A stretch of DNA of 56,780 nucleotides from an uncultured Desulfovibrionaceae bacterium (GTDB lineage: Bacteria > Desulfobacterota > Desulfovibrionia > Desulfovibrionales > Desulfovibrionaceae), in the NCBI GenBank assembly GCA_964369505.1, contig CAYJGS010000001.1, forward strand, positions 1,605 through 58,384, read 5' to 3'. Both the position numbers and the translations under genes were made by a program. The notes under the pieces were generated by a model. That model was not told the DNA's origin, made no database searches, and saw only the letters and a program-made list of their open reading frames with translations. Positions 1 through 21,177 of this stretch are shown here, in pieces (the first letter of the stretch is position 1; the number at the start of each line of letters is the position of its first letter).

Positions 1-161
1 TAACTCGCTACCGCTCGAGTCTCCCGACGGGTTAAGGTGCTCAGGGCGGCGGATAAGATGCAACTGGAAGCCAGTTCCAGTTGCCCGCCTACTTCGCTCA
101 ATAACTCGCTACCGCTCGAGTCTCCCGACGGGTTAAGGTGCTCAGGGCGGCGGATAGCATG
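1..161. repeat. Tandem direct repeat of two ~60-nt units (1-60 and 102-161, 101-bp period). The array may continue left of the window.
   Basis: Positions 1-55 are identical to 102-156, and 58-60 match 159-161. Only 56-57 versus 157-158 differ. Each unit runs into a different hairpin (about 48-89 and 149-182) closed by GGCGG/CCGCC-type pairs. The repeat is G+C-rich and abuts the AT-rich island. Confidence 0.8.
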
Positions 162-253
162 CACGTAAATTCCACATGCCGCTTTGCAGGCGATAAAAAT
201 GAACTTTAGCTTATTTCACACGGCGTAAGGCAAGCCTTAAAGGAATATAATGA

Positions 254-2923
254 CTATAAAAGTTGCCTTTTAGCAAGTTTAGCAAAGTGACCATTGGCTT
301 GAATTAATTCTTTATACGTACCTTGTTCGATGATTTTCCCTTCATTTAAAACAACTATACAGTCGGCATCAATAATTGTTGAAAGGCGATGCGCAATGAC
401 TATTTTTGTAACTGGAAGCTCGGCAATTGTTTCCCTGACAATATTTTGTGCATTATTATCCAGTGCGCTGGTTGCTTCGTCAAAGAAAAGTATTTTAGGG
501 CTTTTAACCAATGCCCTAGCAATTAAAATTCTTTGTTTTTGCCCGCCGGAAAGACCACCGTCAGCACCACTTACCACAGTATGCATTTTCATGGGCATTG
601 CTTCTATATCTTTATCGCATCCTGCGTGTTTTGCCGCTTGCCATGCATCATCAATGGTGAGTGAAGAAGAGCCTGCAACAATATTTTTAAAAATACTATC
701 CGGAATAAGTTTACTATCTTGAAGCACAACACCCAGTTGTGAACGAAGCTGGCGCAAATTCACATGATTTAAATCAAGATTATCATAAGAAATAGAGCCT
801 TGCAGTGGCTTTTCAAAACCTAACAAAAGGCGCAATAAAGTGGATTTTCCCGAACCGGATTCCCCCACAATAGCCACAAATTCGCCGGCATTGATTTTTA
901 AGCTCACATTATCAATTATAGCTCGTTGTAGTGTATTATATTTAAATGTTACATGTTTAATATCTATGTTGCCTTGAATGTTTTCAATTTGCCCTTGCCA
1001 TAAGTTTTTTTCAGGCATTGCTTCAAGTAAGGGGCTTAACCTTTGATATATAGGTATGGCTTCAATGGTATTAATTAACGATATCAAAATCGAACTGAAT
1101 GACGCACTCACTATGCCTAGTGCAGATGAAAAAGCCACAAAATCTGAAAGAGAAATCATTGCATCAGGCGAATAATTAAAAAGAAAAGTAATTAAAATAA
1201 TAATTATTATAATAATACAAATAGGAAGAATAGCGCTTAAAAGTGATACAGTTTTTTCGCAGTTTGATAATTTAAAATATATTCGCTTTTGCTCGGAGAA
1301 TTTTTCACTCCAATGCTCAAGAATTTGATTTTCAGTTCCTGTTGCTCTTATTTTACTTAGTCCGGCAAAATATTGGATACTATTTCCTTGCATTTCACCC
1401 GAAAGAGATGCCATTTCTTTTTGTAATCTATAACTTGTAAAAGCAATAATTATAAAAATAAATGATATAATAAACATAAATAAAAGTGTGACAATACTAA
1501 ATAGAGGTGAATAGTAAAACATCAATAATAAAGGAGGAAATATAAATATTGAAGTCAAAGCTGTTTTTAAAAAAGTATTATTTAAAATATTGGATAGTTG
1601 TATGATACTAAGACTTCTATCTGTTATGTCGCCAATGGAATAGTCTTTAAAAAATGTAAGCGGAACACTTAAAAGCCTATCCCAAACACTAGCTTGCAGC
1701 GACCAACACAAGCGATGGCGGATGCGTAGTAAAAGCAAAGAACTTAAATATTCTATGGTTGCCTTTGTTAAAGCAAAGCCAATTGCTAAAATAAAAATTT
1801 GCATGAGCAATTCATAATCTGCAAGGGGTATGACTGTAGAAAAAATGGTGGCATTTATTATGGGAAGGGCCGAGCTTAGTAATGCTATGATAAAAAACAA
1901 AAAGCTTGCTCTTATAAAATCTGTTCGAGACATTTCCCACGCCAAAGAAAATAGTTTTTTTAATGTAATAGGTTCATTTGGAAAGGGCTTATAAAAAATA
2001 GTGCCTTTATTACTTAAGTTTTCAAGAAAAGAATCATCAATTTGGTTAGTTTTTGCAGTGGCACTGTCATACCAATACCACACACTCTCATCATCAAGAG
2101 GAAATATAGCCACTCTTTCGCCTGTTATTAGTTCACCCAAAAAAGGCATACCACACTTATTCTGCCAATCAGATTCCAATGTGATGTTTCTTTTGCGTAT
2201 GGCAGATTGTTTGCAAATCATGTCAAGGTGGGCGTTTTCATCTGCTTCTGAAGTAATATTAGGTATAATAAATTGTATATTTTGAATTTTTCCAAGAGCA
2301 GTAATTGCACCGGCTAAGGAGTTTTTGTTTGCTGTAAAATTATATTTGTTGTTAACATTAAAAAAGTTAAAAACATTAGAAATGGCCTTTTTATGCGACT
2401 GAGTGGATTCACTTTGAAGCAACTTATATTGTTCACTAAAGGCTGCTTTTTGTTCAAAAACAAAATTATTGAAATAGCCATATAGTTCATTGCTGTTTTC
2501 CACAAAAAATTTTGGTATATAATCAGATGAAAATTCAAAGTCTGGCACAGAAATTTTTAACAAATGAGACATAAATATATGCAACTGTTCGTTTATTAAG
2601 AATTTGTCCGAATCTGCTAAATTTTCAAGCTCTTGATACGGCAATTCCACATATATAGTATTTAAATTTGCAATGGCGCATAATTTTATTGTGCTATTCT
2701 TATTTGGCGCTATGCCGCGAAATGCAGTGCAATCATAATTTGAAAGTGAACCATAATATATTCTATGCATAGCTTGATGTTTACTGTCAAATTCTATTAA
2801 AAATAAATTAAAATCTCCTTCTTTTAAAAGATAAATCACATCTGGATTATCTAAGATGACAAGCTTACCGCTGTTTGAATATTCTAAAAGATTCTTAGGC
2901 AAAGTTTTCAGTGATTGTATCAT
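254..2923 (-). CDS. ABC exporter (fused permease and ATPase) without a peptidase domain. It has an N-terminal cNMP-binding-like domain and resembles the NHLM-type second transporter.
   Basis: The ORF is 889 aa. It has Walker A GESGSGKST, signature LSGGQKQR and Walker B ILFFDEATSALD, with a multi-TM exporter core. The ~300-aa N-terminal region has no C39 Cys motif. Its start overlaps the upstream stop (TAATG at 2921-2925). Confidence 0.85.
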   Translation of the reverse strand: MIQSLKTLPKNLLEYSNSGKLVILDNPDVIYLLKEGDFNLFLIEFDSKHQAMHRIYYGSLSNYDCTAFRGIAPNKNSTIKLCAIANLNTIYVELPYQELENLADSDKFLINEQLHIFMSHLLKISVPDFEFSSDYIPKFFVENSNELYGYFNNFVFEQKAAFSEQYKLLQSESTQSHKKAISNVFNFFNVNNKYNFTANKNSLAGAITALGKIQNIQFIIPNITSEADENAHLDMICKQSAIRKRNITLESDWQNKCGMPFLGELITGERVAIFPLDDESVWYWYDSATAKTNQIDDSFLENLSNKGTIFYKPFPNEPITLKKLFSLAWEMSRTDFIRASFLFFIIALLSSALPIINATIFSTVIPLADYELLMQIFILAIGFALTKATIEYLSSLLLLRIRHRLCWSLQASVWDRLLSVPLTFFKDYSIGDITDRSLSIIQLSNILNNTFLKTALTSIFIFPPLLLMFYYSPLFSIVTLLFMFIISFIFIIIAFTSYRLQKEMASLSGEMQGNSIQYFAGLSKIRATGTENQILEHWSEKFSEQKRIYFKLSNCEKTVSLLSAILPICIIIIIIILITFLFNYSPDAMISLSDFVAFSSALGIVSASFSSILISLINTIEAIPIYQRLSPLLEAMPEKNLWQGQIENIQGNIDIKHVTFKYNTLQRAIIDNVSLKINAGEFVAIVGESGSGKSTLLRLLLGFEKPLQGSISYDNLDLNHVNLRQLRSQLGVVLQDSKLIPDSIFKNIVAGSSSLTIDDAWQAAKHAGCDKDIEAMPMKMHTVVSGADGGLSGGQKQRILIARALVKSPKILFFDEATSALDNNAQNIVRETIAELPVTKIVIAHRLSTIIDADCIVVLNEGKIIEQGTYKELIQANGHFAKLAKRQLL

Positions 2924-5115
2924 TACATGCTCTCAATTAATTTGCTATAGTACCCATTAAGAGTGAGTAATTCTTGATGACTTCCCTGTTCAACAATGCT
3001 ACCTTGCTCTAAAACTATAATTTTATCCGCATCTCGTATAGTGCTTAATCTATGTGCAATAATAATAGTTGTGCAACCGCGTCGGCGGATGTTTCTGTCC
3101 ACATGCAATTCCGTGATGGGATCCAATGCACCTGTGGCTTCATCTAAAATCAAAACGCTTGGATTTACAGAAAGCGCGCGTGCAATTTCAAGTCTTTGCC
3201 TTTGGCCACCGCTAAAGTTTTTACCGTATTCGTCTACTTCTGAAAAAAAGCCTGAAGGACGTTGACTTATTTCGTCATATATTTCGGCATCTATTGCCGC
3301 TTGCTGCACTGTTTGTATAGAAATAGCACGATTTCTCATGCTTAAATTTTCATATACTGTGCCTTTAAACATAAAAATTTCTTGATCCACAACTGCAAAA
3401 GAATTTGCAAATAAAGTAGCGCTTAACTCATTGCGCGTTTTTCCATCAAAGGTGATTTCACCAGACCAAGGAGTATATAAGCCAGTAAGCAATTTAGCAA
3501 TTGTGGTCTTGCCTGAGCCGGAAGAACCAACCAAAGCGATGCGGTCTCCTGCAGATATTTTCAATGATAAATTTTTAATTATGGGTTCTTTTATGGGATT
3601 ATAGCCAAATGTAATATTGCATAGTTCAATATACCCCTGAAGCTTTCCCATTTTTTCATCGGCTAAATCACGAGCATCATTGTTAAAAATAGGGTCTGTA
3701 GTATACGTCAGTACATCGTCAATACGTCCCATAGTAACATCTAACCTTTGCACAGATGAAAGCATGGCCACAAGGGCAACAATTGGGGCAAAAAAGTACC
3801 CTATAAGTATCTGAAACGATAATAATTCACCCATAGACAAAGAACCTAAAAGAACACGCAAAGCCCCAAAAACCAAAATACCGATGGTATTTAATGAAAT
3901 AAGTGTTGTGGGTATAGTTCCTATGAAAAGGGAGGATAATTCAAGTTTCTGAGCAGACATAATGGCATTTGTTTGAACACCGCTAATAGTGGAAAAAAAG
4001 TCGTCTTCAGCACCGGTTGATCTTAGCGTTTCCATAAGCATGATACCTGATGCACTATCACCCACTAGGCGCCCGAAATCCAATTGGACAGATTGACTTA
4101 GAATACGCTGATTTTTAATTTCCCAAGTTAAAGCCCATATGGTGCATATGGCAGTAAAGCAAGCAAACAAACCGAGAAGCGTATCATAATAAACAAGCAA
4201 AGCACCATAAAATATAAACGTTATGAATGACAATATATTTATGGCCAAATCTCGTGAAATAAAGTTTGCGACCTCATCAACAGTTGTTAATCTATTAGCT
4301 AATTCACCTGGCTGGCGTAAATTAAAAAAATTAATAGGCAGGCGGATAATATGTTCAAAAAATTTAAAAGATGATTCTAGGGAAAGTTTAAGATTGAATC
4401 GTATTATAATATTCTGTTGCATATTATGTAACATGAAAATCATAAAAGCAACCATGATGGCAGCAAAAAGAAGCGGTGTTCCCCACGCATAATTTTCGCC
4501 AGTAATAAGCTTATCAACTAAAATTGCTGAAAAGCTTGGCACTAAAATACTTGCAGGAATAAGCAAAAGCCCTGCTAAAACTGTGAAAAAAATCACATCT
4601 TTATATTGCGAAAAGCGTTTTTTTAAAAGATCAACAAAGGAGCGAGGCTTGCCCGAAGGAACAAAGTTTTCATTGGGATAAATTTCCAAAAGTACACCAC
4701 TAAAGGATTGATCCATCTCTTCAGTTGTAACAATTCTTTCGCCAAATGCCGGATCATTAAGGTAATGCTTATCGCCTTTTCTGCCCGTATATAGCAAAAA
4801 ATGATTGAAATTCCAAAATAGGACAATAGGAAGCTTGTATTCACATAAATTATTGATGTCATGCTCTTTATAGCCTGTAGCCACCATGTCATACGACCTT
4901 GCTACCTTTAGCAAAGAAGAAGCCGTGCTTCCATCTCGAGAACAACCGCATGCATCACGCATAAGTTCTAAGGGGATAAATTTCTTATAGAAAGCAAAAA
5001 TCATTGCCAAAGAAGCAGCTCCACACTCAATGATTTCCATTTGTAAAATCAAAGGAACCTTAATTCGGTGTGGTGTAAAGACGTGCTTAATGAGTTTTAA
5101 TATATTTTTAAACAT
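2923..5115 (-). CDS. Peptidase-containing ABC transporter (PCAT): C39 double-glycine peptidase, permease and ATPase
   Basis: The ORF is 730 aa. The N-terminal C39 motif is QMEIIECGAASLAMI (catalytic Cys). It has Walker A GSSGSGKTT, signature FSGGQRQR and Walker B LILDEATGALD. Confidence 0.9.
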   Translation of the reverse strand: MFKNILKLIKHVFTPHRIKVPLILQMEIIECGAASLAMIFAFYKKFIPLELMRDACGCSRDGSTASSLLKVARSYDMVATGYKEHDINNLCEYKLPIVLFWNFNHFLLYTGRKGDKHYLNDPAFGERIVTTEEMDQSFSGVLLEIYPNENFVPSGKPRSFVDLLKKRFSQYKDVIFFTVLAGLLLIPASILVPSFSAILVDKLITGENYAWGTPLLFAAIMVAFMIFMLHNMQQNIIIRFNLKLSLESSFKFFEHIIRLPINFFNLRQPGELANRLTTVDEVANFISRDLAINILSFITFIFYGALLVYYDTLLGLFACFTAICTIWALTWEIKNQRILSQSVQLDFGRLVGDSASGIMLMETLRSTGAEDDFFSTISGVQTNAIMSAQKLELSSLFIGTIPTTLISLNTIGILVFGALRVLLGSLSMGELLSFQILIGYFFAPIVALVAMLSSVQRLDVTMGRIDDVLTYTTDPIFNNDARDLADEKMGKLQGYIELCNITFGYNPIKEPIIKNLSLKISAGDRIALVGSSGSGKTTIAKLLTGLYTPWSGEITFDGKTRNELSATLFANSFAVVDQEIFMFKGTVYENLSMRNRAISIQTVQQAAIDAEIYDEISQRPSGFFSEVDEYGKNFSGGQRQRLEIARALSVNPSVLILDEATGALDPITELHVDRNIRRRGCTTIIIAHRLSTIRDADKIIVLEQGSIVEQGSHQELLTLNGYYSKLIESM

Positions 5116-5123
5116 GGCATGAG

Positions 5124-6449
5124 CTAATGTAGTATTTGTTTGACCTTTTGTTCAATCACATCCTCATGAACACCTGTTCCCAAAAGCGCTTTACGTATTT
5201 TAGAAAAAATAATTTCAATAGGCCGCAACGTTGCAACAGCAATACTTGCACTACAATATGTGCCTTCTGGAATTTTAATATTTGGACCAGCGCCACTTGT
5301 CCATTCAAAACCGCTAAAAGTGTCAGCATTACTGGTAAGCATAATTTTTACTTCCACAGGCATATTATTGCTCATCTTAAAAATAGCATCAGAAAAATTT
5401 TTATTACGATATTTCAAATTTAAAGCTTCGGCAGATTGTACATAATTATTCACAGAATGTACAACGCCCCGTATTGAACCTTCCCTTTCAGCTTTTACCA
5501 TGGAAGGGGTAATCAAAACGGGCATACCTGTTTTAATTTTACCACTATTAAGCAGTGGATAATAGGCATAAAGCACCCAATTATCCGCGTGGCTTTCAGA
5601 GGTGTCATTAATATTTACAACTGCTTGATTGGTATTTACTATCATTCCATGCTCAACAAGTACTGAAGTCACAAGACCTGTACCGGTACTGATAATTTGA
5701 GTATTTGCTCTATAAAGATTATTTTTTTCAACCAATTCTTCACTAAGTGCAATCAATTCTAGATATAGCTGGAGTTCTTCGTGGTTGATTTCTTTTTTTT
5801 CCTTCAAATATTCGTTTTCTGTTTTTTTTAATTCGGTTATTTTATCAACCAAGTTCATGGTAACTCTATCTCTTTCGGCACGGAAATCTGCATATTCCTT
5901 ATCAGAAGTAGCCCCCCTGGCTCGCACTCCGCTCAATTTTTCTAAAAATGCATCATGCCATTCTATTTGCTTTTTAAGCAACTCAATGGTTGTATTTATA
6001 CTTTCTTGCATTTGTGTTTTTTGACTTTCATTACTTTGATCAAGGGACGCGTTGAATGCAATGATTTGGTCACTCATTTTCTTTTTGCGCTCAATCTTAT
6101 CAATCAAACTTTTAATTTCGGAACGATCTTTAGGAATCAAAATTGTAGCTATTAAGTCACCATATTGAACATAATCACCAACAGAAACATTCACTGAGTC
6201 GACAACACCGTTTGCCGGAGAATACGCACTATAAATACCCTGTTTTGTAAGAATAATGCCACTTGCTGTTATGCGTTCGTTTATCTTGCCAAATAAACTC
6301 CAGTAAATTATCAAAACTACCAATAAACCTAAACTAAGAAGGGCTAACCAGCTTTTTCTTGATACGATAACAAACGAACGATCTAACTCCATAGGAGAAA
6401 ACATTTTTTTCAAGGCGTTATTTCTAAAAAGATTTTTTTTCATAATCAT
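5124..6449 (-). CDS. HlyD/CvaA-family membrane fusion (secretion adaptor) protein
   Basis: The ORF is 441 aa. It has an N-terminal TM anchor (WLALLSLGLLVVLIIYW) and a lipoyl-like segment (GVVDSVNVSVGDYVQYGDLIA). A long charged coiled-coil middle and a C-terminal beta-rich part follow. It lies immediately upstream of the two ABC genes. Confidence 0.85.
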   Translation of the reverse strand: MIMKKNLFRNNALKKMFSPMELDRSFVIVSRKSWLALLSLGLLVVLIIYWSLFGKINERITASGIILTKQGIYSAYSPANGVVDSVNVSVGDYVQYGDLIATILIPKDRSEIKSLIDKIERKKKMSDQIIAFNASLDQSNESQKTQMQESINTTIELLKKQIEWHDAFLEKLSGVRARGATSDKEYADFRAERDRVTMNLVDKITELKKTENEYLKEKKEINHEELQLYLELIALSEELVEKNNLYRANTQIISTGTGLVTSVLVEHGMIVNTNQAVVNINDTSESHADNWVLYAYYPLLNSGKIKTGMPVLITPSMVKAEREGSIRGVVHSVNNYVQSAEALNLKYRNKNFSDAIFKMSNNMPVEVKIMLTSNADTFSGFEWTSGAGPNIKIPEGTYCSASIAVATLRPIEIIFSKIRKALLGTGVHEDVIEQKVKQILH

Positions 6450-6551
6450 ACTGCTTTACGCATCAAGGGCGTGTTTATCATTTTGCGGGAAATGTGCTCT
6501 AGTATGGTTTCATGTGAATACAAATATTACTACTTACATTATATTTTGGCT

Positions 6552-7799
6552 TTATTTAACAATACCAATATCAACTTTTTTTAAAAAATCGTATAGCTCA
6601 CTTGCTCGAACAACACTAATAGGATAATCTTTAATATAACCATCTTCACCAAATGCTATATCACCCATTGGTGTTGATAGTGTTTGCGTGTTCATATAAT
6701 CAAGAACTATATTTATATCATTAGAGCCTGCCTGCTCTATGGCATTATATAAAATGAATACCATACGGTACACCATGGGAATTATATAAAATGTTGTTTT
6801 TATTTTTCCTTCATTGTAAAGCTCTTTCATTATCGAAATTAAATTATCATCAAGTCTATAGTTTAAAATTATATAGCTTTTGTTAATATTTGGTAGAAGT
6901 TGTAATTCTTCCCAAGTGATAGAATCTTGGTTGATAATAAAATCATTATATTTAGGCTTTTGTAAAAAATTTTTATTATTAGTATAAAAATCTAAAAACA
7001 TAGCTCTATTACCAATAGAAATAATATTTAGATCCGGTGCAAATTTTAAAGATTCATTGATATATCTTTGCACGTGACCACTTAGGTTTTTCTTTTCGTA
7101 ATTTAAAGTTCCTAACATATTTAAGTTGTTTGAATGAAAATTACGCAAAATAACACTGGAATATTTTTTACTGTATAAGTCGTCTTCATGCATTATGATA
7201 AAAGGCGTTTCTGTATCATATTTTTGAGCATTCCATTGCGCTGCAGCTTTTGCCTCGGTAAAAACTGAAGCAGTGCTTGAAAAATAACTCTTAGCACGGG
7301 GAACTGCTAAATCTATATCCCCTTGTGTCATGGTGATTTGCAATAAATTGGCAGCAGCAACTTTATTTTTTATAACGGAAACAATGGAAGAACTAAAAGG
7401 ACCAATTATTCCAAAAATATCTTCTTGAGCCATAATTTCACTCAATAAATCGTCACTTTTTTTTGCTGATCCTTCATTATCATACCACAATATTTCGATT
7501 TTTTTCCCGTGTTCTTTCTTTTGAGCGTTGATTTTATTGACAGCAAACTCTATGGTATCCTTTAATTTTATATTATGGTTGTCCCAATTTTCCCAAGCTC
7601 CAAGAGCGGCAAATTTTATAATTTCTCTTGGTTTTTTGTAATATTCTAATCTTTTATTGCCAAGTTCCTGCAGGCTTAGTTCTTGCGTTGATATGAAAGA
7701 TGAAAAAGTGCCCAAGCTTTTTAAGTCATTAGCATTAATCAAAAAAAATATAGGAATTATTGCAATAAATAATATTATTAGAACAGCCTTCTTTGGCAT
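6552..7799 (-). CDS. Membrane-anchored or secreted type-1 periplasmic-binding-fold protein (LivJ/ANF-receptor-like)
   Basis: The ORF is 415 aa. It has an N-terminal hydrophobic anchor or signal (AVLIILFIAIIPIFFLI). An alternating beta-alpha pattern and length are typical of Peripla_BP_6-type proteins. A GGAGA RBS lies 5 nt upstream of the ATG. The fold assignment is from pattern recognition only. Confidence 0.6.
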   Translation of the reverse strand: MPKKAVLIILFIAIIPIFFLINANDLKSLGTFSSFISTQELSLQELGNKRLEYYKKPREIIKFAALGAWENWDNHNIKLKDTIEFAVNKINAQKKEHGKKIEILWYDNEGSAKKSDDLLSEIMAQEDIFGIIGPFSSSIVSVIKNKVAAANLLQITMTQGDIDLAVPRAKSYFSSTASVFTEAKAAAQWNAQKYDTETPFIIMHEDDLYSKKYSSVILRNFHSNNLNMLGTLNYEKKNLSGHVQRYINESLKFAPDLNIISIGNRAMFLDFYTNNKNFLQKPKYNDFIINQDSITWEELQLLPNINKSYIILNYRLDDNLISIMKELYNEGKIKTTFYIIPMVYRMVFILYNAIEQAGSNDINIVLDYMNTQTLSTPMGDIAFGEDGYIKDYPISVVRASELYDFLKKVDIGIVK

Positions 7800-7936
7800 T
7801 GTTTTCTCCGTAGGCTTGGGGCTCGCAAATAAATTTTTTTCGGAATTTTATATAAATCATCTTAAAAAAAGGTAACAGTGCTCAGAGTCCATTTCGCCAT
7901 ATAGCATACATGCGTTATTACGCTTATTTCATTATA

Positions 7937-7976
7937 TAAAAAACTCCCAACGGTTTTGCTTTGCACCGTTAGGAGT
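7937..7976 (-). terminator. Rho-independent terminator or attenuator directly after the precursor-peptide gene
   Basis: On the minus strand, the stem actcctaacggt/accgttgggagt (one mismatch) is followed by TTTTTT. It lies 61 nt after the precursor stop and upstream of the next gene. Confidence 0.7.
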
Positions 7977-8036
7977 TAAAATGAACAACGGATATTACCC
8001 GCTAATAGCAATTACGTTGTAAGTAGTCGCACGTAT

Positions 8037-8234
8037 CTAAATATTATATGTTGCGTTTGGTTTGTAAGCGCCTCCCCTAGATCCTCCACCTGAAGAACTA
8101 TATTGGGCAGCACCACCAGTAATTGAATCTAATGACTCTTCGTCAAGCTCATTGGTTAACTTATTAATTTTTGAAGCTTGTTCTTGTTTTATTTTTTGGT
8201 CAAGTTCACATTTTTTTTTCGTTGCTTTTTCCAT
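8037..8234 (-). CDS. Double-glycine-leader precursor peptide (41-aa leader, 24-aa core AAQYSSSGGGSRGGAYKPNATYNI)
   Basis: The ORF is 65 aa with an AAGGA RBS about 10 nt upstream. The leader ends L(-12)DEESL(-7)DSI(-4)TGG, which matches the LSxxELxxIxGG double-glycine consensus. It is the first gene of an operon that ends with a C39-peptidase ABC exporter. Confidence 0.8.
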   Translation of the reverse strand: MEKATKKKCELDQKIKQEQASKINKLTNELDEESLDSITGGAAQYSSSGGGSRGGAYKPNATYNI

Positions 8235-8359
8235 AATGAGTTATCCTTTTGATTATTAGTGAGTAAATACTGAGAATGCTTTACAAAAAAAAGTTCTATT
8301 CGCAATATGGCTTCACGATTTTTGATAGTTAAGACTAACTTACAGGCTGAAAATTGTCA

Positions 8360-8391
8360 AGCTAAACGCAAATGACAGCTAAACGCAAATG
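8360..8391. promoter_or_regulatory. Tandem 15-bp direct repeat agctaaacgcaaatg x2 (17-bp period) in the divergent promoter region
   Basis: Exact copies lie at 8360-8374 and 8377-8391. This is 126-157 bp upstream of the precursor start codon (minus strand) and about 140 bp upstream of the wbpE-like start (plus strand). Confidence 0.45.
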
Positions 8392-8529
8392 CAGCACATT
8401 ATAAGCCTAGACAATTCTATAAAATGGGTCTATGATACTAATTTCTATGAAGGTATAATCATGCATAGCAATCTTGAATATATACCATGTTATTGTGATT
8501 TTGTATGAAATTAGTGAAAAGGACGCACC

Positions 8530-9717
8530 ATGGAATTTATCGATTTAAAAACACAACAAGCGCGCATAAAAGAAAGCATAGACAAACGCATAGCAACTGT
8601 TTTGCAACATGGTCAATACATCATGGGGCCTGAAGTAAAAGAGCTCGAAGGGCAACTAGCCGCCTTTGTGGGTGCTAAGCATTGCATAGGCTGTGCTTCG
8701 GGAACCAATGCCTTAGAACTTGTGCTTGGTGCGTGGAATATAGGGGCAGGCGATGCTGTCTTTACCACGCCTTTTTCTTTTATTGCCACAGCAGAAGTTA
8801 TTGCAAAAACAGGCGCTGTGCCCATATTTGTGGATGTAGATCCCCACACATGGAATATAGACAGCTCAAAGCTCGAAAGCGCCATTATGGCTGTGCAAAG
8901 TAACGCTATTACTGATTATCCTTTACCGGCCATATGTAAAAATAAAGCCTTACATGCCAAAGCTATTATTGCCGTGGATCTTTTTGGTAATCCTGCAGAT
9001 TATGAAAATATTTTGCGCATTGCCCAAAAATATAATCTTTCTGTGCTTGAAGATGGTGCGCAAGGTTTTGGGGCTGAATATAAAAACGAAAAATTGTGCA
9101 ACTGCGGTTGCCATGCCGCTACAACCAGTTTTTTTCCTGCAAAGCCTCTTGGTTGTTATGGTGATGGTGGGGCTGTGTTTACCAATGATGCGGCTTTGGC
9201 GCATACGGTGGATTCATTGCGCTATCATGGTCGTATAGATGCGCAAAATAAAAATGAAAATATACGCCTTGGGTATAATGGGCGCTTAGACACCATGCAA
9301 GCGGCTATTTTATTGGCAAAAATGGAAATTTTTGCAGAAGAAGTAAGTTTACGCCATAAAATCGGCGCGTATTATAGTGATTTTTTCCAAAAAAATCCAC
9401 AATATGGCATAAGTACACAAAAAGTGACACCGCAAGGGCAATGCACTTGGGCTCAATATACCGTATGCTTGCCAGAGCATGTGGACAGAGCTTCTTTGAT
9501 GCAAAAACTCAAAAAGGAAAACATACCCACAGCCATTAACTATCCTTTGAGCATGCATGTGCAAAAATGCTTTGCGTATTTGGGTTATGGTGCGGAAGAT
9601 TTTCCTGTGGTGCAAGAATTGAGCAAGCGTGTGCTTTCTTTGCCCATGCACCCTTATTTAACTGAATCCATGCAGCAGCATGTACTTGAAAAACTTATAG
9701 CTTATTGTGGGAACTGA
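8530..9717 (+). CDS. wbpE: DegT/DnrJ/EryC1-family PLP aminotransferase, WbpE/WlbC-like (UDP-2-acetamido-2-deoxy-3-oxo-glucuronate aminotransferase)
   Basis: The ORF is 395 aa. The N-terminus MEFIDLKTQQARIKESIDKRI..LQHGQYIMGPEVKELE closely follows the WbpE N-terminus as I remember it. The motifs SFFPAKPLGCYGDGGA (Lys for PLP) and LSLPMHPYL are present. Confidence 0.85.
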   Translation: MEFIDLKTQQARIKESIDKRIATVLQHGQYIMGPEVKELEGQLAAFVGAKHCIGCASGTNALELVLGAWNIGAGDAVFTTPFSFIATAEVIAKTGAVPIFVDVDPHTWNIDSSKLESAIMAVQSNAITDYPLPAICKNKALHAKAIIAVDLFGNPADYENILRIAQKYNLSVLEDGAQGFGAEYKNEKLCNCGCHAATTSFFPAKPLGCYGDGGAVFTNDAALAHTVDSLRYHGRIDAQNKNENIRLGYNGRLDTMQAAILLAKMEIFAEEVSLRHKIGAYYSDFFQKNPQYGISTQKVTPQGQCTWAQYTVCLPEHVDRASLMQKLKKENIPTAINYPLSMHVQKCFAYLGYGAEDFPVVQELSKRVLSLPMHPYLTESMQQHVLEKLIAYCGN

Positions 9718-9718
9718 T

Positions 9719-10783
9719 ATGTTACATGTAGCTCTTGTAGGGTGCGGTCGCGTTTCTAAGCGGCATTGCGAACTTTTAGGCGGTGGAAAAATTAAAGGCG
9801 CTGCCCTTGCTTGTGTGTGTGATATAAAAGAAGAAAGAGCCAAGCAAGCCGGCGAACAATGGAATGTTCCTTATTTTACCGATATGCACGAAATGATGCG
9901 CGCCATGGGAGATAAAATCCAAGCTATAAGCATACTTACCGAAAGCGGTAATCACGCAGCACATACGGTGGCGCTTGCTCCATATAAAAAACATATCATT
10001 GTAGAAAAACCCATGGCCTTAACCTTGGCCGATGCCGATGCCATGATACGCGCTTGCGATGCTGCAGGGGTACGGCTTTTTGTGATAAAACAAAACAGAT
10101 TCAATGTGCCTGTGCAAAAAGTGCGTGAGGCCTTAGAGGCTGGGCGCTTTGGCAAATTGGTCATGGGCACTGTTCGGGTGCGCTGGTGCCGCAGGCAACA
10201 ATATTATGACCAAGATGCATGGCGCGGCACTTGGGCCATGGACGGCGGCGTTTTGACCAATCAGGCCAGCCATCATGTGGATCTTTTGGAATGGATGCTC
10301 GGTGATGTGGAAAGTGTTTTTGCCAAAAGCGCCACCATGCTTGTGGACATTGAAGCCGAAGATACAGCCGTTGTGCTTTTAAAATTCCGCAACGGCGCCC
10401 TTGGCATTATCGAAGCAACCACCGCCATGCGGCCGAAAGATACAGAAGGCTCTTTATCCATTTTGGGCGAAAAAGGCAGCATAGTTATTGGCGGTTTTGC
10501 GGTGAACAAAATGGAGACATGGCAATTTGAAGAGCCTTTACCCGAAGACGAAACCATTATGGAAAAATTCTCTGTAAACCCACCTGATGTTTATGGTTTT
10601 GGCCATAAAACCTATTATGACCATGTGGTGAATTGCTTAGAACAAGGGACACATCAATTGGTGGATGGGCTTGAAGGCAGACGTAGCCTTGAACTCATTC
10701 TTGCCATTTATGAATCCATAGAAACAGGCCAAGAAGTAAAGCTGCACTTTGTGCCAGAGCGTTGCCGTTTGGGCCATAAATAA
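9719..10783 (+). CDS. wbpB: Gfo/Idh/MocA oxidoreductase, WbpB/WlbA-like (UDP-GlcNAcA 3-dehydrogenase)
   Basis: The N-terminal Rossmann motif is VALVGCGRVSKRH. An EKP motif and a FVIKQNRFN segment are shared with the paralog at 21178-22230. The ATG at 9719 follows the wbpE stop. The ORF track gives an alternative GTG at 9707. Confidence 0.8.
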   Translation: MLHVALVGCGRVSKRHCELLGGGKIKGAALACVCDIKEERAKQAGEQWNVPYFTDMHEMMRAMGDKIQAISILTESGNHAAHTVALAPYKKHIIVEKPMALTLADADAMIRACDAAGVRLFVIKQNRFNVPVQKVREALEAGRFGKLVMGTVRVRWCRRQQYYDQDAWRGTWAMDGGVLTNQASHHVDLLEWMLGDVESVFAKSATMLVDIEAEDTAVVLLKFRNGALGIIEATTAMRPKDTEGSLSILGEKGSIVIGGFAVNKMETWQFEEPLPEDETIMEKFSVNPPDVYGFGHKTYYDHVVNCLEQGTHQLVDGLEGRRSLELILAIYESIETGQEVKLHFVPERCRLGHK

Positions 10784-10802
10784 TACTTGGCAGAGCGTAA
10801 TT

Positions 10803-11381
10803 ATGAGTGAAACTACAGAATATTTTGTTCATGAATCTTCCTACATAGATGAACATGTTAGCATTGGAAAGGGCACGCGCATATGGCATTTTTCGCATAT
10901 TTTGTCTAATACTGCCATAGGTGAACGTTGCGTCATAGGGCAAAATGTCACGGCGGGTCCGCATGTAACCATTGGTAATGGTTGTAAAATTCAAAATAAT
11001 GTCAGTGTGTTTAAAGGGGTTACTTTAGAAGATGATGTCTTTTGTGGCCCAAGCATGGTTTTTACCAATGTATTTAATCCCCGTGCGAATATTGCTCGCA
11101 TGGACGAAGCCCGCCCCACCTTGGTGCGCAAAGGAGCTACCTTAGGAGCCAACTGCACCATTGTTTGCGGTGTTACCATTGGCGAATATGCTTTTGTGGG
11201 TGCGGGATCGGTGGTAACAAAAGATGTACCTGCTCATGCACTTGTATACGGAAATCCGGCAAAAATGCACGGATATGCTTGTAAGTGTGGTGAAAAAATA
11301 GAAAATATGTCTTGTATTGCTTGTGGCTTGCAATACAATATCACAGCAGATGGTGTGTGTAGTGTAGCAACAAGCGCTTGA
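10803..11381 (+). CDS. wbpD: Left-handed beta-helix N-acetyltransferase, WbpD/WlbB-like (UDP-2-acetamido-3-amino-2,3-dideoxy-glucuronate N-acetyltransferase)
   Basis: The protein is 192 aa from the internal ATG (MSETTEYFVHESSYID). Hexapeptide repeats are present. The block IQNNVSVFKGVTLEDDVFCGPSMVFTNVFNPRA...TLGANCTIVCGVTIGEYAFVGAGSVV is typical of WlbB/WbpD. Confidence 0.85.
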   Translation: MSETTEYFVHESSYIDEHVSIGKGTRIWHFSHILSNTAIGERCVIGQNVTAGPHVTIGNGCKIQNNVSVFKGVTLEDDVFCGPSMVFTNVFNPRANIARMDEARPTLVRKGATLGANCTIVCGVTIGEYAFVGAGSVVTKDVPAHALVYGNPAKMHGYACKCGEKIENMSCIACGLQYNITADGVCSVATSA

Positions 11382-11405
11382 AAAAGACAATATAAGGAAA
11401 AAAGA

Positions 11406-12104
11406 ATGCAAAAGATTGGCATTATAACATATCAATATCCGCACTTAAAGGCTGAGCAAATGATTTTAGCTTTGCTTGAAGAAAAAGATTTGCAACTTAA
11501 AATCTATGCAGCTCCTTATAAGCAAAGAACAGAGCGTAAAGTTCGCTTAATGCATAGACCTCCGCATCAATACGCTGCAACTCCTGAGGAAATGGCTTCT
11601 AAATTTTCTTTATCATATAAGGCTTGTGACAGCTATTTAGATATTGACGATGCGTGCGATGTGTATCTTATTGCAGGAGCAGGCATTATCCCTGCGCAAA
11701 GCATAACAGGCAGGCGTATTGTCAATGCACATCCCGGCATTATTCCTTATTCTCGCGGCCTTGATAGCTTTAAATGGGCAATTTATAATATGATTCCTGT
11801 GGGCAATACCTTGCACTATATTTCAGAAGAAGTGGATATGGGCGAAACCATTGCCATCAGAGAAACTCCTGTATTTATGTCCGATACTTTAGAGGTTTTG
11901 GCCAGACGCCATTTTGAGTCAGAAGTATATTTGATATCCAACGCTTTGTCGTATATACGTAAGGGCTCGCCTGTAATTTCTCCGTATATGCAAGATTATA
12001 TGCATAAAAATCCGCAAATTAACGAGCCTACGCGGCGTATGTCCCTTGAAATGGAAGACGAACTGTATATAAAATTTGAACAATATAAAAAGCTGTTTGC
12101 GTAA
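11406..12104 (+). CDS. Formyltransferase-fold protein (possible sugar N-formyl/acyl transferase)
   Basis: The ORF is 232 aa with an AAGGAAA RBS. The motif IVNAHPGIIPYSRGLDSFKWAI...HYISEEVDMGETIA resembles the N-terminal formyl-transferase domain (NxHpslLPxxRG ... D.G.I). Confidence 0.6.
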   Translation: MQKIGIITYQYPHLKAEQMILALLEEKDLQLKIYAAPYKQRTERKVRLMHRPPHQYAATPEEMASKFSLSYKACDSYLDIDDACDVYLIAGAGIIPAQSITGRRIVNAHPGIIPYSRGLDSFKWAIYNMIPVGNTLHYISEEVDMGETIAIRETPVFMSDTLEVLARRHFESEVYLISNALSYIRKGSPVISPYMQDYMHKNPQINEPTRRMSLEMEDELYIKFEQYKKLFA

Positions 12105-12128
12105 AAAATCGTGATGTAATATACGCAC

Positions 12129-13229
12129 ATGAATATTGTATTATTAAGTAACCATTGGTTTTGTTCGCCGCGCAAAGCCGGATTTCACCACCTTGCCCAT
12201 GCTTGGCATGCAGAAGGGCACAAGATTACTTTTGCAACCATAGGGCTTTCTTTTATTTCTTATTTAAGGCGTGATTATCGCACAAAATATAAGGGGCTGT
12301 GGCAAGCTTGCAATGTCATGCAAAAGGTGCAAGAAAATCTTTTTTCGTATGTGCATTTTACGCCTTGGCATCCGCACACCACTTTGCTTGCGCCTGCAGA
12401 TAATTTGCTGGCACCTTATCTTGAAAAATATGCCAACTTTCCCTTAGGTGCGTTAGAAGCGCATATTAAAGAAGCAGATATTGTTGTATATGAAAGCAGT
12501 GTTGCAATTTTTTTGCTCAAACTCTGCAAAAAATTAACCCCCACCGCCAAACATATTTATCGTGTTTCCGACGATATCTCAGTTTTGCGCTCCACACCAC
12601 AAAAAATGCAGGATTTGGAACTAGAAATAGCTCCACTTTTTGATGTGATTTCAGCGCCTTGTTCGTATATCAAAGAAAAATTCCCCACCCCCAATGCTTT
12701 TGTGCACAGGCATGGAATTTCTACAGCTTCTTTTGATGCTGTACAAGAATCCCCCTATGCTTTGGGCACTAAAAATGCTGTTTTTGTGGGGGTGTTTAAT
12801 TTTGATGCTGAAAGTGTTTGGCTTATGGCCAAACATAACCCCGAAGTGCATTTTCACATTATAGGTAATGTGCCTGTAAAAGCAGGTCTTGATAATGTGT
12901 TTACGTATGGTGAAATGCCTTTTATAAAAACACTTCCTTATATAAAATTTGCCGATATTGGTTTACAATCTCGAAAATTTGGCCCTGCGGCACAATCATT
13001 TTCAGATTCCCTTAAAGTTATTCAGTTCCGTTATTGTGCTTTGCCCATAATCTCGCCGGAATTTTTAGATTTGCAACGTGATGGTGTGTTTTATTATACA
13101 CCTTGCGACGCGCAGTCTTGCGCTAAAGTCATACAAGATGCTTTGCAAAGCGGCAAAGATGCACAGCGCGCCAAAGAAGTACAAAATTGGACTATGGTGG
13201 CGCAAACAATACTTAATAGTTGCCTGTAA
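12129..13229 (+). CDS. GumK-like (GT70) glycosyltransferase, putative glucuronosyltransferase
   Basis: The ORF is 366 aa. The blocks IVLLSNHWFCSPRKAGFHHLA, ADIVVYESSVAIFLL..AKHIYRVSDD and EVHFHIIGN..DNVFTYGEM line up with my recollection of Xanthomonas GumK. No search was run. Confidence 0.55.
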   Translation: MNIVLLSNHWFCSPRKAGFHHLAHAWHAEGHKITFATIGLSFISYLRRDYRTKYKGLWQACNVMQKVQENLFSYVHFTPWHPHTTLLAPADNLLAPYLEKYANFPLGALEAHIKEADIVVYESSVAIFLLKLCKKLTPTAKHIYRVSDDISVLRSTPQKMQDLELEIAPLFDVISAPCSYIKEKFPTPNAFVHRHGISTASFDAVQESPYALGTKNAVFVGVFNFDAESVWLMAKHNPEVHFHIIGNVPVKAGLDNVFTYGEMPFIKTLPYIKFADIGLQSRKFGPAAQSFSDSLKVIQFRYCALPIISPEFLDLQRDGVFYYTPCDAQSCAKVIQDALQSGKDAQRAKEVQNWTMVAQTILNSCL

Positions 13230-13248
13230 TTTATATACTTTAATTACC

Positions 13249-14361
13249 ATGCTTTCAAAGAAACATCGTATACGCGTTTTGCACATAAGTGCATCTTCTG
13301 CCATAGGCGGCGGGCCTGAGCATGTATGGCAATTGGTTAAGCATTTGCCGCATCCCATAGCGTCTTATATTGCAGCGCCTGATTCTAAGCCCTATGCTTC
13401 ACGCTTTGCTGCAGCTGTGGGGCAAGAACGCATGGTTATTATACAACAACGCCGTTTTAGCCTTGCAGCTTTTTGGCGTGTTTTTCGTTTTATCCAAAAA
13501 CATCAAATCCAGATAATACATTCCCATGGTAAGGGAGCCGGCATATATGGGCGTTTATTAGCTTTAATTACACATGCCCAGAGCGTACATACTTTTCACG
13601 GCGTGCATTTACCGCAAAAAAAAATCCCGCAAAAGCTGTATATTTTTTTGGAGCGCGTGCTCTGCCGCATAAGTAAAGTGTGCATAAATGTTTCCAAGGG
13701 GGAACAAGAGCTTACGCAAAAATTACAATGGTTTTCCAAGCAGGCAACGGTTATATATAATGGGGTGCAAGTGCCGGAAACTATGCCGCAAAGGCCTATG
13801 CCAAAGCCATTTACTATCTTGCACATAAGCCGCTTTGACCAAAAACCAAAAAATTCTCTCTTTGTATTACCCATAGCTCACGCTTTGCAAGAAAAGCATA
13901 TGCTGTCTGCGTGCACTTTTGTGCTCATTGGCGATGGGGAACAAAGGCTAGAGCTTGAACAAGCTGTACATACTACAGGCTTTGACCATATCTTTCAATT
14001 TTTGGGGCAACAAGATTGTGTGCAGCCCTTTTTTGCCAATGCAGGCTGCCTTTTATCCACATCGCATTATGAGGGCATGCCCTTGGCCGTTCTTGAAGCC
14101 AAAGCCCATGGCGTACCGGCGGTGGTGAGTGATGTGATGGGCAATAGAGATGCCATAGAGCATGCATGCACAGGCTTATTATATACACCGGGCAAGGCCG
14201 CATGCGCGGCAGATGCCATTATACACCTTATGACACACGAAAAAGAATGGCATAGCATGTGTGCACAGGCGCATGCACAGGCCAAAAAGCATTTTACCAT
14301 ACAAAATATGGCTCTTGCCACAGCAAAAGTCTATGAAAATACCGTTGAGGCCAAAATATGA
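13249..14361 (+). CDS. GT-B glycosyltransferase (GT4/glycosyl transferases group 1)
   Basis: The protein is 370 aa from the internal ATG (MLSKKHRIRVLHISASSAIGGGPEHV). The C-terminal motif is STSHYEGMPLAVLEAKAHGVPAVVSDVMGNRD (E-x7-E type). The upstream ORF-track extension overlaps the previous gene. Confidence 0.8.
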   Translation: MLSKKHRIRVLHISASSAIGGGPEHVWQLVKHLPHPIASYIAAPDSKPYASRFAAAVGQERMVIIQQRRFSLAAFWRVFRFIQKHQIQIIHSHGKGAGIYGRLLALITHAQSVHTFHGVHLPQKKIPQKLYIFLERVLCRISKVCINVSKGEQELTQKLQWFSKQATVIYNGVQVPETMPQRPMPKPFTILHISRFDQKPKNSLFVLPIAHALQEKHMLSACTFVLIGDGEQRLELEQAVHTTGFDHIFQFLGQQDCVQPFFANAGCLLSTSHYEGMPLAVLEAKAHGVPAVVSDVMGNRDAIEHACTGLLYTPGKAACAADAIIHLMTHEKEWHSMCAQAHAQAKKHFTIQNMALATAKVYENTVEAKI

Positions 14362-15443
14362 AAATAGCCTACTATGCCTCACTCGGTAATGCACAATTTC
14401 AAGGTGTTGCGCATAAATTGGCTAGGCAAATAACTGTATGGAATGCCATGCCCCATGTGCAAGCCAAACTTTTTTGCCGCAGTGTTAACACTGCATGGTC
14501 TTTACCGGAAAAAGTATATCCTTTCAAGGGTATGCCTGTTTTATGTTATGACGCAAAACTCTTACAAGATATGCAAGCTTTTGCGCCGGATGTGGTCTAT
14601 GTGCGCGATGAACTTTGCGGCCCCATGCTTTTTGCTATTCTACGCGCTTTTCCGCAAAAAGTAGTACTTGAGGTGAATGCAGATATATTGCAAGAGTTGC
14701 AATTAGAAGGGCAAAAATCTTTTAAACGAAAGCTGGCATGGTATTATGCCATATTTACCTATGGTTTTGTAAAAAAACGCATACGCGCTTGCGCATTGGT
14801 TTCAGGGGAGTATGTGCCATTATTTCCTCTGCTTGAACCATCGTGCAAAAAAGTTTTTCCTAACAGCATAGATGTGCAAAATATACCCATTTGTAAAAAA
14901 AATAGAGAAAGCGCGCCCTCTCGCCCAGCGCTTATTTTTGTGGGAACCCCAGGTCAGGTTTGGCATGGTGTAGATCTGATGTATCCTTTAGCCAAGGCTT
15001 TACCTGATTTTGATTTTCATATTGTAGGGCCTTATGCAGAAAAAAATGCTCCGCCAAATATGATTTTTCATGGCTATGTGACAGGAAAAGACTTGTTAAA
15101 GCTGTATGCGCAATGCCATGTGGGTGTGGGAGCATTGGCTTTATTTCGCAAAAACCTTTATGCAAACAGCACATTAAAGGTGTGTGAATATATAGCGCAT
15201 GGTTTACCGGTAATTACCGGCTATACCGAAATGATTTTTAAAGAACATGCTCCCTCTTGGGCTTTAGAACTAAAAGGCGAAGAAGGTATGTTTACTAAGG
15301 CTCAAAATATTTTTAAAGTGCAAGAATTTGTTTTGCAAAATGCAAGGCGCGTTGTTTCCCACGCAGAAAGCGCGCCCTATATTGACGCGCATATGTGGGA
15401 AGCAAAAAAAATACTTTGGCTACAAAGTATTTTAGAGTGCTGA
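14358..15443 (+). CDS. GT-B glycosyltransferase-like protein
   Basis: The ORF is 361 aa and overlaps the previous gene by ATGA. It contains FVGTPGQVWHGVDL...FHIVGP...FHGYV...STLKVCEYIAHGLPVITG. The last codons and the TGA stop lie inside repeat copy A. Confidence 0.7.
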   Translation: MKIAYYASLGNAQFQGVAHKLARQITVWNAMPHVQAKLFCRSVNTAWSLPEKVYPFKGMPVLCYDAKLLQDMQAFAPDVVYVRDELCGPMLFAILRAFPQKVVLEVNADILQELQLEGQKSFKRKLAWYYAIFTYGFVKKRIRACALVSGEYVPLFPLLEPSCKKVFPNSIDVQNIPICKKNRESAPSRPALIFVGTPGQVWHGVDLMYPLAKALPDFDFHIVGPYAEKNAPPNMIFHGYVTGKDLLKLYAQCHVGVGALALFRKNLYANSTLKVCEYIAHGLPVITGYTEMIFKEHAPSWALELKGEEGMFTKAQNIFKVQEFVLQNARRVVSHAESAPYIDAHMWEAKKILWLQSILEC

Positions 15444-15584
15444 CAAAGTCAGCACGACCGATAAATCAAGAGTAGGCGCAATTTATTTGCGCCGTTAAGC
15501 GATTGATTTTCGTGCCTTTCCACCAAGACAGTTTTACTGTCTTAGGTGGCGCAAACGCCCGTAAGGGGGGTTGTCATCAAACTG
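15434..15584 (-). repeat. Multi-hairpin intergenic repeat element, copy A (subtype 1, inverted orientation)
   Basis: The reverse complement is near-identical to copy C (43743-43894). This includes ccac.taagacagtaaaactgtcttggtgg, ggaaaggcacgaaaatcaatcgcttaacggcgcaaataaattgcgcc and gtgctgac...gtcagcac. Confidence 0.85.
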
Positions 15585-15608
15585 GATACTTTGGTTACAA
15601 ACTATTTT

Positions 15609-18742: not shown

Positions 18743-18809
18743 TTATAAAATTTATCCAATTCGTGTATTCTAGGTATAACTGCGCTGCTAAAATTTCAAA
18801 TTTACATAT

Positions 18810-19895: not shown

Positions 19896-19942
19896 ACCGA
19901 ATCATGTCCTAATAAAATGCATTGTCAAGTTACTGTAGTTTT

Positions 19943-21115: not shown

Positions 21116-21177
21116 GAAAAAAGGCCTGCTATCCCGTATTAATTTTATCTACACATATAACGCAATTATAATTATAA

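Follow-up and report, generated by a model that had tools for sequence, protein, structure and literature searches.

The DNA analysed here, called the window throughout, is a stretch of 56,780 nt from an uncultured Desulfovibrionaceae bacterium (assembly GCA_964369505.1, contig CAYJGS010000001.1, positions 1,605-58,384 of the forward strand). It contains an island of five genes, covering about 8 kb of the minus strand. The first gene encodes the precursor of a small double-glycine (GG) peptide, and is followed by genes for a periplasmic binding protein (PBP), a HlyD-type membrane fusion protein, an ATP-binding cassette (ABC) transporter with a C39 peptidase domain, and a second ABC protein devoid of peptidase (ABC2). 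We consider it probable that the precursor gene heads this island and that the cassette exports its product as a linear, probably unmodified peptide. The features of the locus are listed below.

8377-8391 and 8360-8374, minus strand: two direct copies of CATTTGCGTTTAGCT, which abut the -35 box of the peptide promoter.
8332-8360, minus strand: sigma-70-like promoter, with the -35 box TTGACA at 8355-8360, a 17-nt spacer and the -10-like box TAGTCT at 8332-8337.
8244-8248, minus strand: ribosome-binding site AAGGA, 9 nt before the ATG.
8112-8234, minus strand: leader, codons 1-41, MEKATKKKCELDQKIKQEQASKINKLTNELDEESLDSITGG.
8037-8111, minus strand: core, codons 42-65, AAQYSSSGGGSRGGAYKPNATYNI, plus stop; the hypervariable payload.
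7936-7977, minus strand: intrinsic-terminator-like hairpin between the precursor and PBP genes, with a 13-bp stem at 7942-7977 and U6 at 7936-7941.
6552-7799, minus strand: divergent type I PBP of 415 aa with an N-terminal hydrophobic signal or anchor; Peripla_BP_6, 59.8 bits against a gathering score of 31.7.
5124-6449, minus strand: HlyD-type membrane fusion protein, part of the export cassette of NHLP type; TIGR03794, 255.7 bits (cut-off 156.2).
2923-5115, minus strand: peptidase-containing ABC transporter (C39, transmembrane and nucleotide-binding domains); TIGR03796, 888.6 bits against 853.3.
254-2923, minus strand: ABC2, second ABC permease/ATPase without peptidase, 889 aa; TIGR03797, 731.2 bits against 709.4, over residues 202-888.

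The precursor open reading frame (ORF) runs from 8234 to 8037 and encodes 65 aa, the leader followed directly by the core; on the plus strand, the frame at 8037-8234 is full of stop codons. A previous sequence-only reading of this DNA had given the ORF, its sequence, its composition and its residue numbering exactly, leaving out the strand. As it had described, the 41-aa leader has hydrophobic residues at -4 (I), -7 (L) and -12 (L) and acidic ones (E/E/D) at -9 to -11, and it ends with TGG at residues 39-41. The 24-aa core contains 5 Gly, 4 Ser, 3 Tyr, 4 Ala and one Pro, and neither Cys nor acidic residues. Its charge is +1.8 at pH 7, its grand average of hydropathy (GRAVY) -0.78 and its average mass 2377.5 Da, and it has no hydrophobic or amphipathic segment. 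The precursor had no match at E ≤ 0.01 to the NHLP (TIGR03793), Nif11 (TIGR03798) or any other NCBIfam model. Pfam Bacteriocin_IIc (PF10439) scored 17.4 bits against a gathering score of 27.1, mainly over the leader end (residues 28-56), and the precursor is not a member of that family.

The three exporter genes are contiguous at 254-6449, and all score above the curated NCBIfam equivalog cut-offs. The families TIGR03794, TIGR03796 and TIGR03797 constitute the export cassette of the "NHLP bacteriocin system", defined by phylogenetic profiling (Haft et al. 2010, PMC2887384), and we take the exporter of the window for a bona fide member of this type. Its C39 transporter gene lies ~3 kb downstream of the precursor gene, on the same strand. 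Pfam Peptidase_C39 matches residues 20-149 of the transporter, and this domain matches LahT150 (6mpz), a promiscuous GG protease, with E = 1.8e-40. Alignment to ComA placed a Gln (in LQMEIIECG), a Cys (ECG), a His (NFNHF) and an Asp (LNDP) at ComA positions Gln11, Cys17, His96 and Asp112, which we take to be the catalytic residues.

LahT150 requires just the last 13 residues of the leader, and its hydrophobic groove holds residues -4, -7 and -12 of the leader helix; the general rule for GG leaders is hydrophobic residues at these three positions, and often at -15, with Glu at -8 (PMC6363468). The window leader supplies the groove residues (I at -4, L at -7, L at -12), and has GG at -2/-1, where Gly-Ala or Gly-Ser can also stand, and a C39 transporter nearby, as found for substrates of such peptidases. 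The precursor is thus probably placed for leader cleavage after Gly-Gly by the adjacent C39 transporter, and the earlier proposal of a GG-leader precursor served by a C39 domain gains support from both the leader motif and the neighbouring gene. The same reading had also offered the internal GG of the core (SRGG|AY) as an alternative cleavage site. This second GG is unique to the window peptide (SRGS, TDRT or TDKE in relatives) and is not a plausible C39 site, because S, G and Q would occupy positions -4, -7 and -12.

Homologous peptides were found on four contigs of metagenome-assembled genomes (MAGs) of uncultured Desulfovibrionaceae, all from study ERP123703, on which a literature search found no paper: one on L001, one on L002, two on L003 (one of which is L003a) and two on L009. 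With the window peptide they make a comparison set of seven, of which five are linked to a cassette and four of those are long forms. The frame is kept in all six relatives; its loss in related genomes had been named beforehand as a result that would speak against the gene. Leader pN/pS (nonsynonymous over synonymous polymorphism) was 0.24-0.62 in all pairs, and we take the leader to be under purifying selection. Residues Q17, L30 (-12), L35 (-7), D36 (-6) and G40 (-2) are invariant in 7/7 peptides, position -4 is I or V in 7/7, the leader ends with GG in six cases and GA in one, and K-Q-E-Q at leader positions 16-19 is kept in the five cassette-linked peptides.

Alignment of leader and core, a check that the sequence-only reading had proposed, thus identified the leader as the conserved part and the core as hypervariable. 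Cores are 16 to 24 aa long across the family and also differ in sequence; the four cassette-linked long ones share only x-x-Q-G/Y-x-S-x-G-G-G-S/T and K-P-A/N-P/A. Between the window and L001, its closest relative, DNA identity is 95.9% in the leader, 66.7% in the core, 96.6% in the 3' intergenic region and 100% at the start of the PBP gene. In this pair, 25/75 core positions differ, compared to 13/406 flanking ones (Fisher p = 1.7e-13), and the core pN/pS is ~2.6, a value based on small counts. The core is a replacement hot spot within an otherwise near-identical locus. Its lack of Cys holds for the window and not as a family trait, as the L002 core has one Cys.

Members of the family appear to occur only in a few uncultured Desulfovibrionaceae. 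When 1.84 billion representative proteins were searched exhaustively with the profile, nothing but known members and one spurious repeat protein was returned, a word-index profile search returned only the seven known peptides, and two JGI metagenome scans, with the peptide and the PBP as queries, gave no matches. The repeat protein, P0009 (1284 aa, nine ITGGGTGLTYKPNADY units), matched the peptide profile at E = 1e-6, and was judged to be a compositional or repeat artefact rather than a homologue. The two peptides of L009 are in tandem (1434-1835), between a DUF1848 gene and feoAB and away from any exporter. The same leader end is present in both (LDEESLDSITGG and LSQSDLDHVVGG). Their cores (SAPNRSFYSGGPQPPRF and AAPKQSFMSGYQLPKF) are short and contain Pro, Phe and Tyr, and the PQPPRF tail may be loosely reminiscent of proline-rich antimicrobial peptides.

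Expression signals accompany the gene. The promoter, with a perfect TTGACA -35 box, lies ~120 nt upstream of the ATG, and was missed in a generic promoter scan because its -10 box is weak. The pattern CTTGACA, 17-19 nt, TA(G/C)T.. is found at an equal distance from the ATG in the window, L001, L002 and L003a, and the precursor gene of L001 has AGGA at the same spacing to the ATG as the ribosome-binding site of the window. Downstream, the 112-nt terminator region folds at -33.2 kcal/mol (z = -3.6), and the matching hairpin of L002 differs on the 3' arm only (GG to AG, changing two G-U pairs into A-U). A small precursor gene behind a strong promoter, followed by a leaky terminator, is the usual layout of peptide loci. 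The tandem copies of CATTTGCGTTTAGCT, which may bind a regulator, either activator or repressor, belong to the window only, as they were not present upstream of the L001, L002 and L003 peptide genes. No RNA family was detected by an Rfam scan of 7600-8700, and a sigma-54 promoter before the PBP gene was ruled out by eye, its spacing being unfit.

To gauge the motif itself, a loose form of it (hydrophobic residues at -12/-7/-4, then G[GAS], inside a short ORF) was counted in the six-frame translation of the window and in first-order Markov simulations of it. It occurred once in the window, compared to 2.6 +/- 1.6 times in simulated sequence. This sole match is directly upstream of the C39 transporter operon and co-oriented with it, and no second leader-bearing ORF was found elsewhere in the window. 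The significance of the ORF therefore comes from its position in the operon, its ribosome-binding site, its conserved frame and leader and the leader pN/pS, not from the motif, and on such comparative grounds we regard it as a genuine gene.

Between the peptide and its exporter lies the PBP gene, for which just four homologues were detectable in 5.8 billion proteins. The PBP adjoins the cassette in every locus with a readable neighbouring gene. In the window, L002 and L003 it separates the precursor from HlyD; in L001, where the contig stops inside the PBP gene, it directly follows the precursor; and in two further loci, L004 (64% identical) and L005, it comes after the second ABC gene. The linkage thus holds down to 47% identity (L005) and across two gene orders. 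The PBP dN/dS (nonsynonymous over synonymous substitution rates) of 0.13 indicates purifying selection, with values of 0.07-0.08 for HlyD and the C39 transporter and 0.12 for ABC2. No localised hypervariability was seen in the PBP, and the idea that it co-diversifies with the core was dropped, as its dN/dS compared to 0.07-0.12 in the transporter genes gave no such signal. In structural terms, an AlphaFold model from a 5-sequence alignment reached a predicted local distance difference test (pLDDT) score of 43, too low for a usable structure; a PDB search found no match with the single sequence, and weak LivJ-type matches with the profile (best E = 0.0011).

We found no report in the literature of a solute-binding protein paired with such a cassette. 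Some cyanobacterial clusters of this type encode a SurA-like accessory protein of the periplasm (PMC3140520), so that an extracytoplasmic helper is not unprecedented. The co-inherited PBP most probably partners the exported peptide outside the cytoplasm, either for self-protection or for sensing. At L004, a gene for a dCache-type methyl-accepting chemotaxis protein is convergent to the PBP gene (1830-3950); this may be a coincidence, and bears on the idea of a PBP that feeds a sensor.

The L005 locus (265-11606), from a related Desulfovibrionaceae MAG, combines an orthologous cassette and PBP with cargo of another kind, namely three NHLP-like precursors of 110-122 aa with Cys-rich cores. They match TIGR03793 at E = 3e-12 to 7e-8, all below the 50.9-bit cut-off. 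The locus also contains a radical S-adenosylmethionine (SAM)/SPASM maturase-like gene (best match TIGR04463, 207 bits, below cut-off), a weak GNAT-like gene and an ABM-domain protein. It looks like an uncharacterised NHLP cluster for a radical-SAM ribosomally synthesised and post-translationally modified peptide (RiPP).

In ABC2, the N-terminal 335-340 aa matched neither Pfam (E ≤ 10) nor any PDB sequence. Some 200 aa at the start are an extension outside the TIGR03797 model, and the next ~130 aa also match no known domain. A single-sequence AlphaFold model of this N-terminus had a pLDDT of 35, too low for use, its DSSP trace suggesting a beta-rich segment at residues 20-93. Residues 1-335 (window 1919-2923) could be a leader- or ligand-binding domain.

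The limits of the island were examined by BLAST. Homology between the window and L001 begins at ~8237, next to the precursor start codon, and homology with L003 ends at the ABC2 stop codon, at 253. The flanks differ in every genome: a polysaccharide cluster in the window, YjdM, ATP-grasp and radical SAM genes in L001, an IS110-type fragment in L002 and LysE in L003. GC content is 31-36% over the island (254-8360), compared to 37-48% in the rest of the window. By these homology limits, varied flanks and low GC, the island behaves as a mobile five-gene module, which suggests horizontal mobility. The transposase fragment of L002 is just upstream of the island (Transposase_20, 20.1 bits, just under the 21.3-bit threshold).

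The polysaccharide or O-antigen-type cluster of the window (8530-22230) is transcribed divergently from the peptide gene, and synteny between the two is not seen in relatives. Among its members are a DegT aminotransferase, two GFO/IDH/MocA oxidoreductases, a hexapeptide acetyltransferase, a formyltransferase-like gene, a GumK-like glucuronosyltransferase, several GT4 enzymes, an AsnB-like amidotransferase and a UDP-GlcNAc 2-epimerase. Upstream of the L001 peptide (98-6425) are genes for a TraB/PrgY/GumN-family protein, a 296-aa protein without domain match, a radical SAM/SPASM enzyme, a methyltransferase and two ATP-grasp (RimK-like) proteins. They may form a separate peptide-modification cluster, and have no counterpart in the window.

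Whether the core is modified was approached through the enzymes encoded nearby. No maturase, sulfotransferase or other peptide-modifying enzyme was found in the island or in the scanned window ORFs of at least 150 aa, and no peptide glycosyltransferase in the island. Thioether cross-links need Cys and graspetide-type ester or amide links need acidic residues; both are ruled out because the core has neither. Glycosylation at the N-A-T tripeptide, left open by the sequence-only reading, did not hold up. The tripeptide is unique to the window, relatives having KPAP, KPAPT or another sequence there. The window glycosyltransferases (12129-21115) belong to the polysaccharide cluster, and have no counterpart beside the peptide in L001, L002, L003 or L009. 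Since the peptide is not accompanied in relatives by the sugar and glycosyltransferase genes that flank it in the window, nothing points to glycosylation; there is neither a conserved acceptor site nor a co-conserved glycosyltransferase.

We propose the following course of events. The 65-aa precursor would be made in the cytoplasm, and the C-terminal ~13 residues of its leader (L-12, L-7, I-4, G-2, G-1) would dock as a helix in the C39 domain. The leader would be cleaved after Gly41, and the core exported in one step, by type I secretion, through both ABC proteins, the adaptor HlyD and a TolC-type channel encoded at an unlinked site. The product would most likely be a linear, unmodified, hydrophilic and weakly cationic peptide of ~2.38 kDa. 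The leader would serve as a constant address label and the core as a fast-changing payload, which differs even between near-identical strains. Cleavage after Gly41, export, the lack of modification and any contact between PBP and peptide are what we infer from sequence comparison.

Several observations weigh against this scheme. Leader position -8 is Ser, not the consensus Glu, and -15 is Thr, not a hydrophobic residue. The 41-aa leader exceeds what C39 recognition needs, and a modifying enzyme encoded at another locus could dock at the invariant Q17 and the K-Q-E-Q stretch. The bare motif proves nothing by itself, as ~2.6 occurrences are expected per window by chance, and the whole peptide family amounts to a handful of MAG contigs from one study. 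Lastly, because the L005 cassette and PBP serve Cys-rich NHLP-type precursors, the PBP may belong to the exporter and not to the peptide core. The chance expectation of the motif, together with the lack of any curated family match, could even suggest that the ORF is fortuitous, or a decaying, non-functional remnant upstream of the transporter operon. We find this highly improbable, given seven intact homologues with a conserved leader under purifying selection, a placement next to the cassette that is consistent across four loci, and the presence of ribosome-binding site, promoter and terminator.

Another explanation is that the core is a RiPP substrate of enzymes encoded elsewhere in the genome and recruited by the long leader, the modification being glycosylation at N-A-T, Tyr sulfation or a radical-SAM cross-link. 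A leader of 41 aa where 13 suffice for C39 (PMC6363468), with Q17 invariant and K-Q-E-Q in 5/7 peptides, is consistent with it, and NHLP-type cassettes often serve precursors with unlinked maturases (PMC2887384). Moreover, L005 couples the same cassette with a radical SAM/SPASM enzyme, a radical SAM/SPASM gene lies ~3 kb upstream of the L001 peptide, and a DUF1848 gene is adjacent in L009. No candidate enzyme, however, is conserved across the loci, and the homology block starts next to the peptide start codon. The restriction of N-A-T to the window, the island devoid of maturase, sulfotransferase and peptide glycosyltransferase, and the absence from relatives of the window polysaccharide cluster with its glycosyltransferases also make this unlikely in our view.

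If the product is a linear, unmodified peptide, it could be a signal or an antagonist, two roles that we weight about equally; the option of a signal instead of a toxin, raised in the sequence-only reading, is kept. As a strain-specific signal, the exported peptide would re-enter the periplasm and bind the co-encoded PBP, which, by analogy with LuxP/LuxQ, might signal to an unlinked histidine kinase or chemoreceptor, core variants being "pherotypes". The hydrophilic cores of 16-24 aa, without linked modification enzyme, resemble Gram-positive GG pheromones. The core varies where leader and flanks are near-identical, a ligand-binding protein is encoded within the operon, and there is no small membrane immunity gene, intergenic gaps being merely 237 and 102 bp. 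RaxX offers a precedent, being a 21-aa non-toxic signal with a 39-aa leader exported by a Gram-negative C39 transporter (bioRxiv 10.1101/442517). However, no kinase, regulator or other transducer was found in the island at any locus, the PBP (dN/dS 0.13) shows no sign of co-diversification with the core, and in L005 a PBP of this family goes with NHLP cargo that is Cys-rich and unrelated. L003 and L009 each have two paralogous peptides, and such pairs at one locus are more typical of bacteriocin loci. We also know of no precedent for a Peripla_BP_6 protein as a bacterial peptide-signal receptor. All told, a signalling role is possible and somewhat doubtful.

A small microcin-like antagonist of related bacteria, the producer being protected by the exporter and/or by a PBP that sequesters the peptide reaching its own periplasm, can likewise be put forward only tentatively. 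The characterised Gram-negative GG peptides with a C39 exporter are mostly class II microcins, which are widespread (PMC12219008), and cyanobacterial transport-only clusters, with GG precursors of 28-164 aa, have been classed as putative bacteriocin clusters (PMC3140520). A mobile, low-GC island with varied flanks, multiple divergent paralogues and a hypervariable core would also fit. Against this, the core has only 24 aa, with five Gly and one Pro, is hydrophilic (GRAVY -0.78) and lacks any hydrophobic or amphipathic segment, whereas class II microcins are far longer, at roughly 60-100 aa, and the two-protein ABC cassette is not a CvaAB-type pair. The microcin immunity proteins that have been validated are small (no more than 216 aa), reside in the inner membrane and are encoded beside the microcin (PMC12219008); no such gene is present here. 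The replacement pattern of the core, pherotype-like or arms-race-like, counts for both signal and toxin. The 24-mer is short enough for chemical synthesis, which makes binding, signalling and killing assays feasible. We regard as rather unlikely that the island is a self-contained Gram-negative module for peptide communication or recognition, in which the membrane-associated PBP would recognise, in the periplasm, a strain-variable linear peptide processed by C39 and exported; if so, double-glycine peptides would have in the PBP a receptor, or an immunity protein, of a new class.

Pheromones of the ComC/CSP type come as strain-level variants of the mature peptide behind a conserved leader. The Gram-positive GG pheromones (ComC/CSP, BlpC; PMC7595303; ComA 8hf4-8hf7) are, like the predicted product of the window, short, linear, unmodified and cationic peptides served by a C39 exporter. 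Their loci, however, encode a cognate histidine kinase and response regulator, whereas the window host has two membranes and the PBP as only candidate receptor, with no transducer linked. No kinase or regulator was found in the island of the window, L003 or L005, and the window encodes its nearest kinases over 26 kb from there.

Compared with the 41-aa leader and 24-aa core of the window, microcins have much shorter leaders and cores several times as long. Class II microcins (MccV type; PMC12219008) share with the window precursor the state of unmodified Gram-negative GG peptides, and an export route that combines a C39 ABC protein with a membrane fusion protein and TolC. A small membrane immunity protein is encoded beside them, in contrast to the window, where the gaps of 237 and 102 bp leave no room for such a gene, and the locus falls outside this class. 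The sequence-only reading had rightly set the core apart from class II microcins, as it is far shorter (24 aa) and hydrophilic (GRAVY -0.78).

The resemblance to the NHLP/Nif11 systems (PMC2887384) lies in the same three-gene cassette, the Gly-Gly motif and the conserved leader with variable cores, and the relative L005 has NHLP-like precursors on the orthologous cassette. The window precursor differs in having no linked maturase and a short, Cys-free core, and the window has an extra PBP gene, unmentioned in PMC2887384. Closest in size and layout is RaxX/RaxSTAB of Xanthomonas oryzae (bioRxiv 10.1101/442517, PMC6637879). There too, a Gram-negative host makes a small precursor (60 aa) with a GG leader (39 aa) hydrophobic at -4/-7/-12 and a core (21 aa) with Tyr and Pro but no Cys, and uses a C39 transporter, an adaptor and an unlinked TolC; the RaxX product is not a toxin (bioRxiv 10.1101/442517). 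Yet RaxX needs the operon-encoded sulfotransferase RaxST and an Asp-Tyr site, of which the island has no sulfotransferase and the core no Asp-Tyr, and RaxAB has a single ABC protein and no PBP.

The cyanobacterial transporter-only clusters (PMC3140520) combine, as here, a C39 ABC transporter, a second ABC protein, HlyD and diverse GG precursors without modification enzymes, and some cluster groups also have an accessory periplasmic protein. In the window, the accessory protein belongs to the type I solute-binding proteins and is neither rotamase nor chaperone, and the phylum and precursor family differ. Double-glycine peptides with C39 exporters are well known, and the basic assignment made here is ordinary. 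The sharp hypervariability of the core beside a conserved PBP partner is mildly interesting. Less ordinary, next to the systems above, are a precursor family with a short leader that is neither NHLP nor Nif11, cores of 16-24 aa and no linked modification enzyme, and a divergent PBP whose linkage to the cassette persists in both gene orders, at identities as low as 47%, and alongside two unrelated types of cargo.

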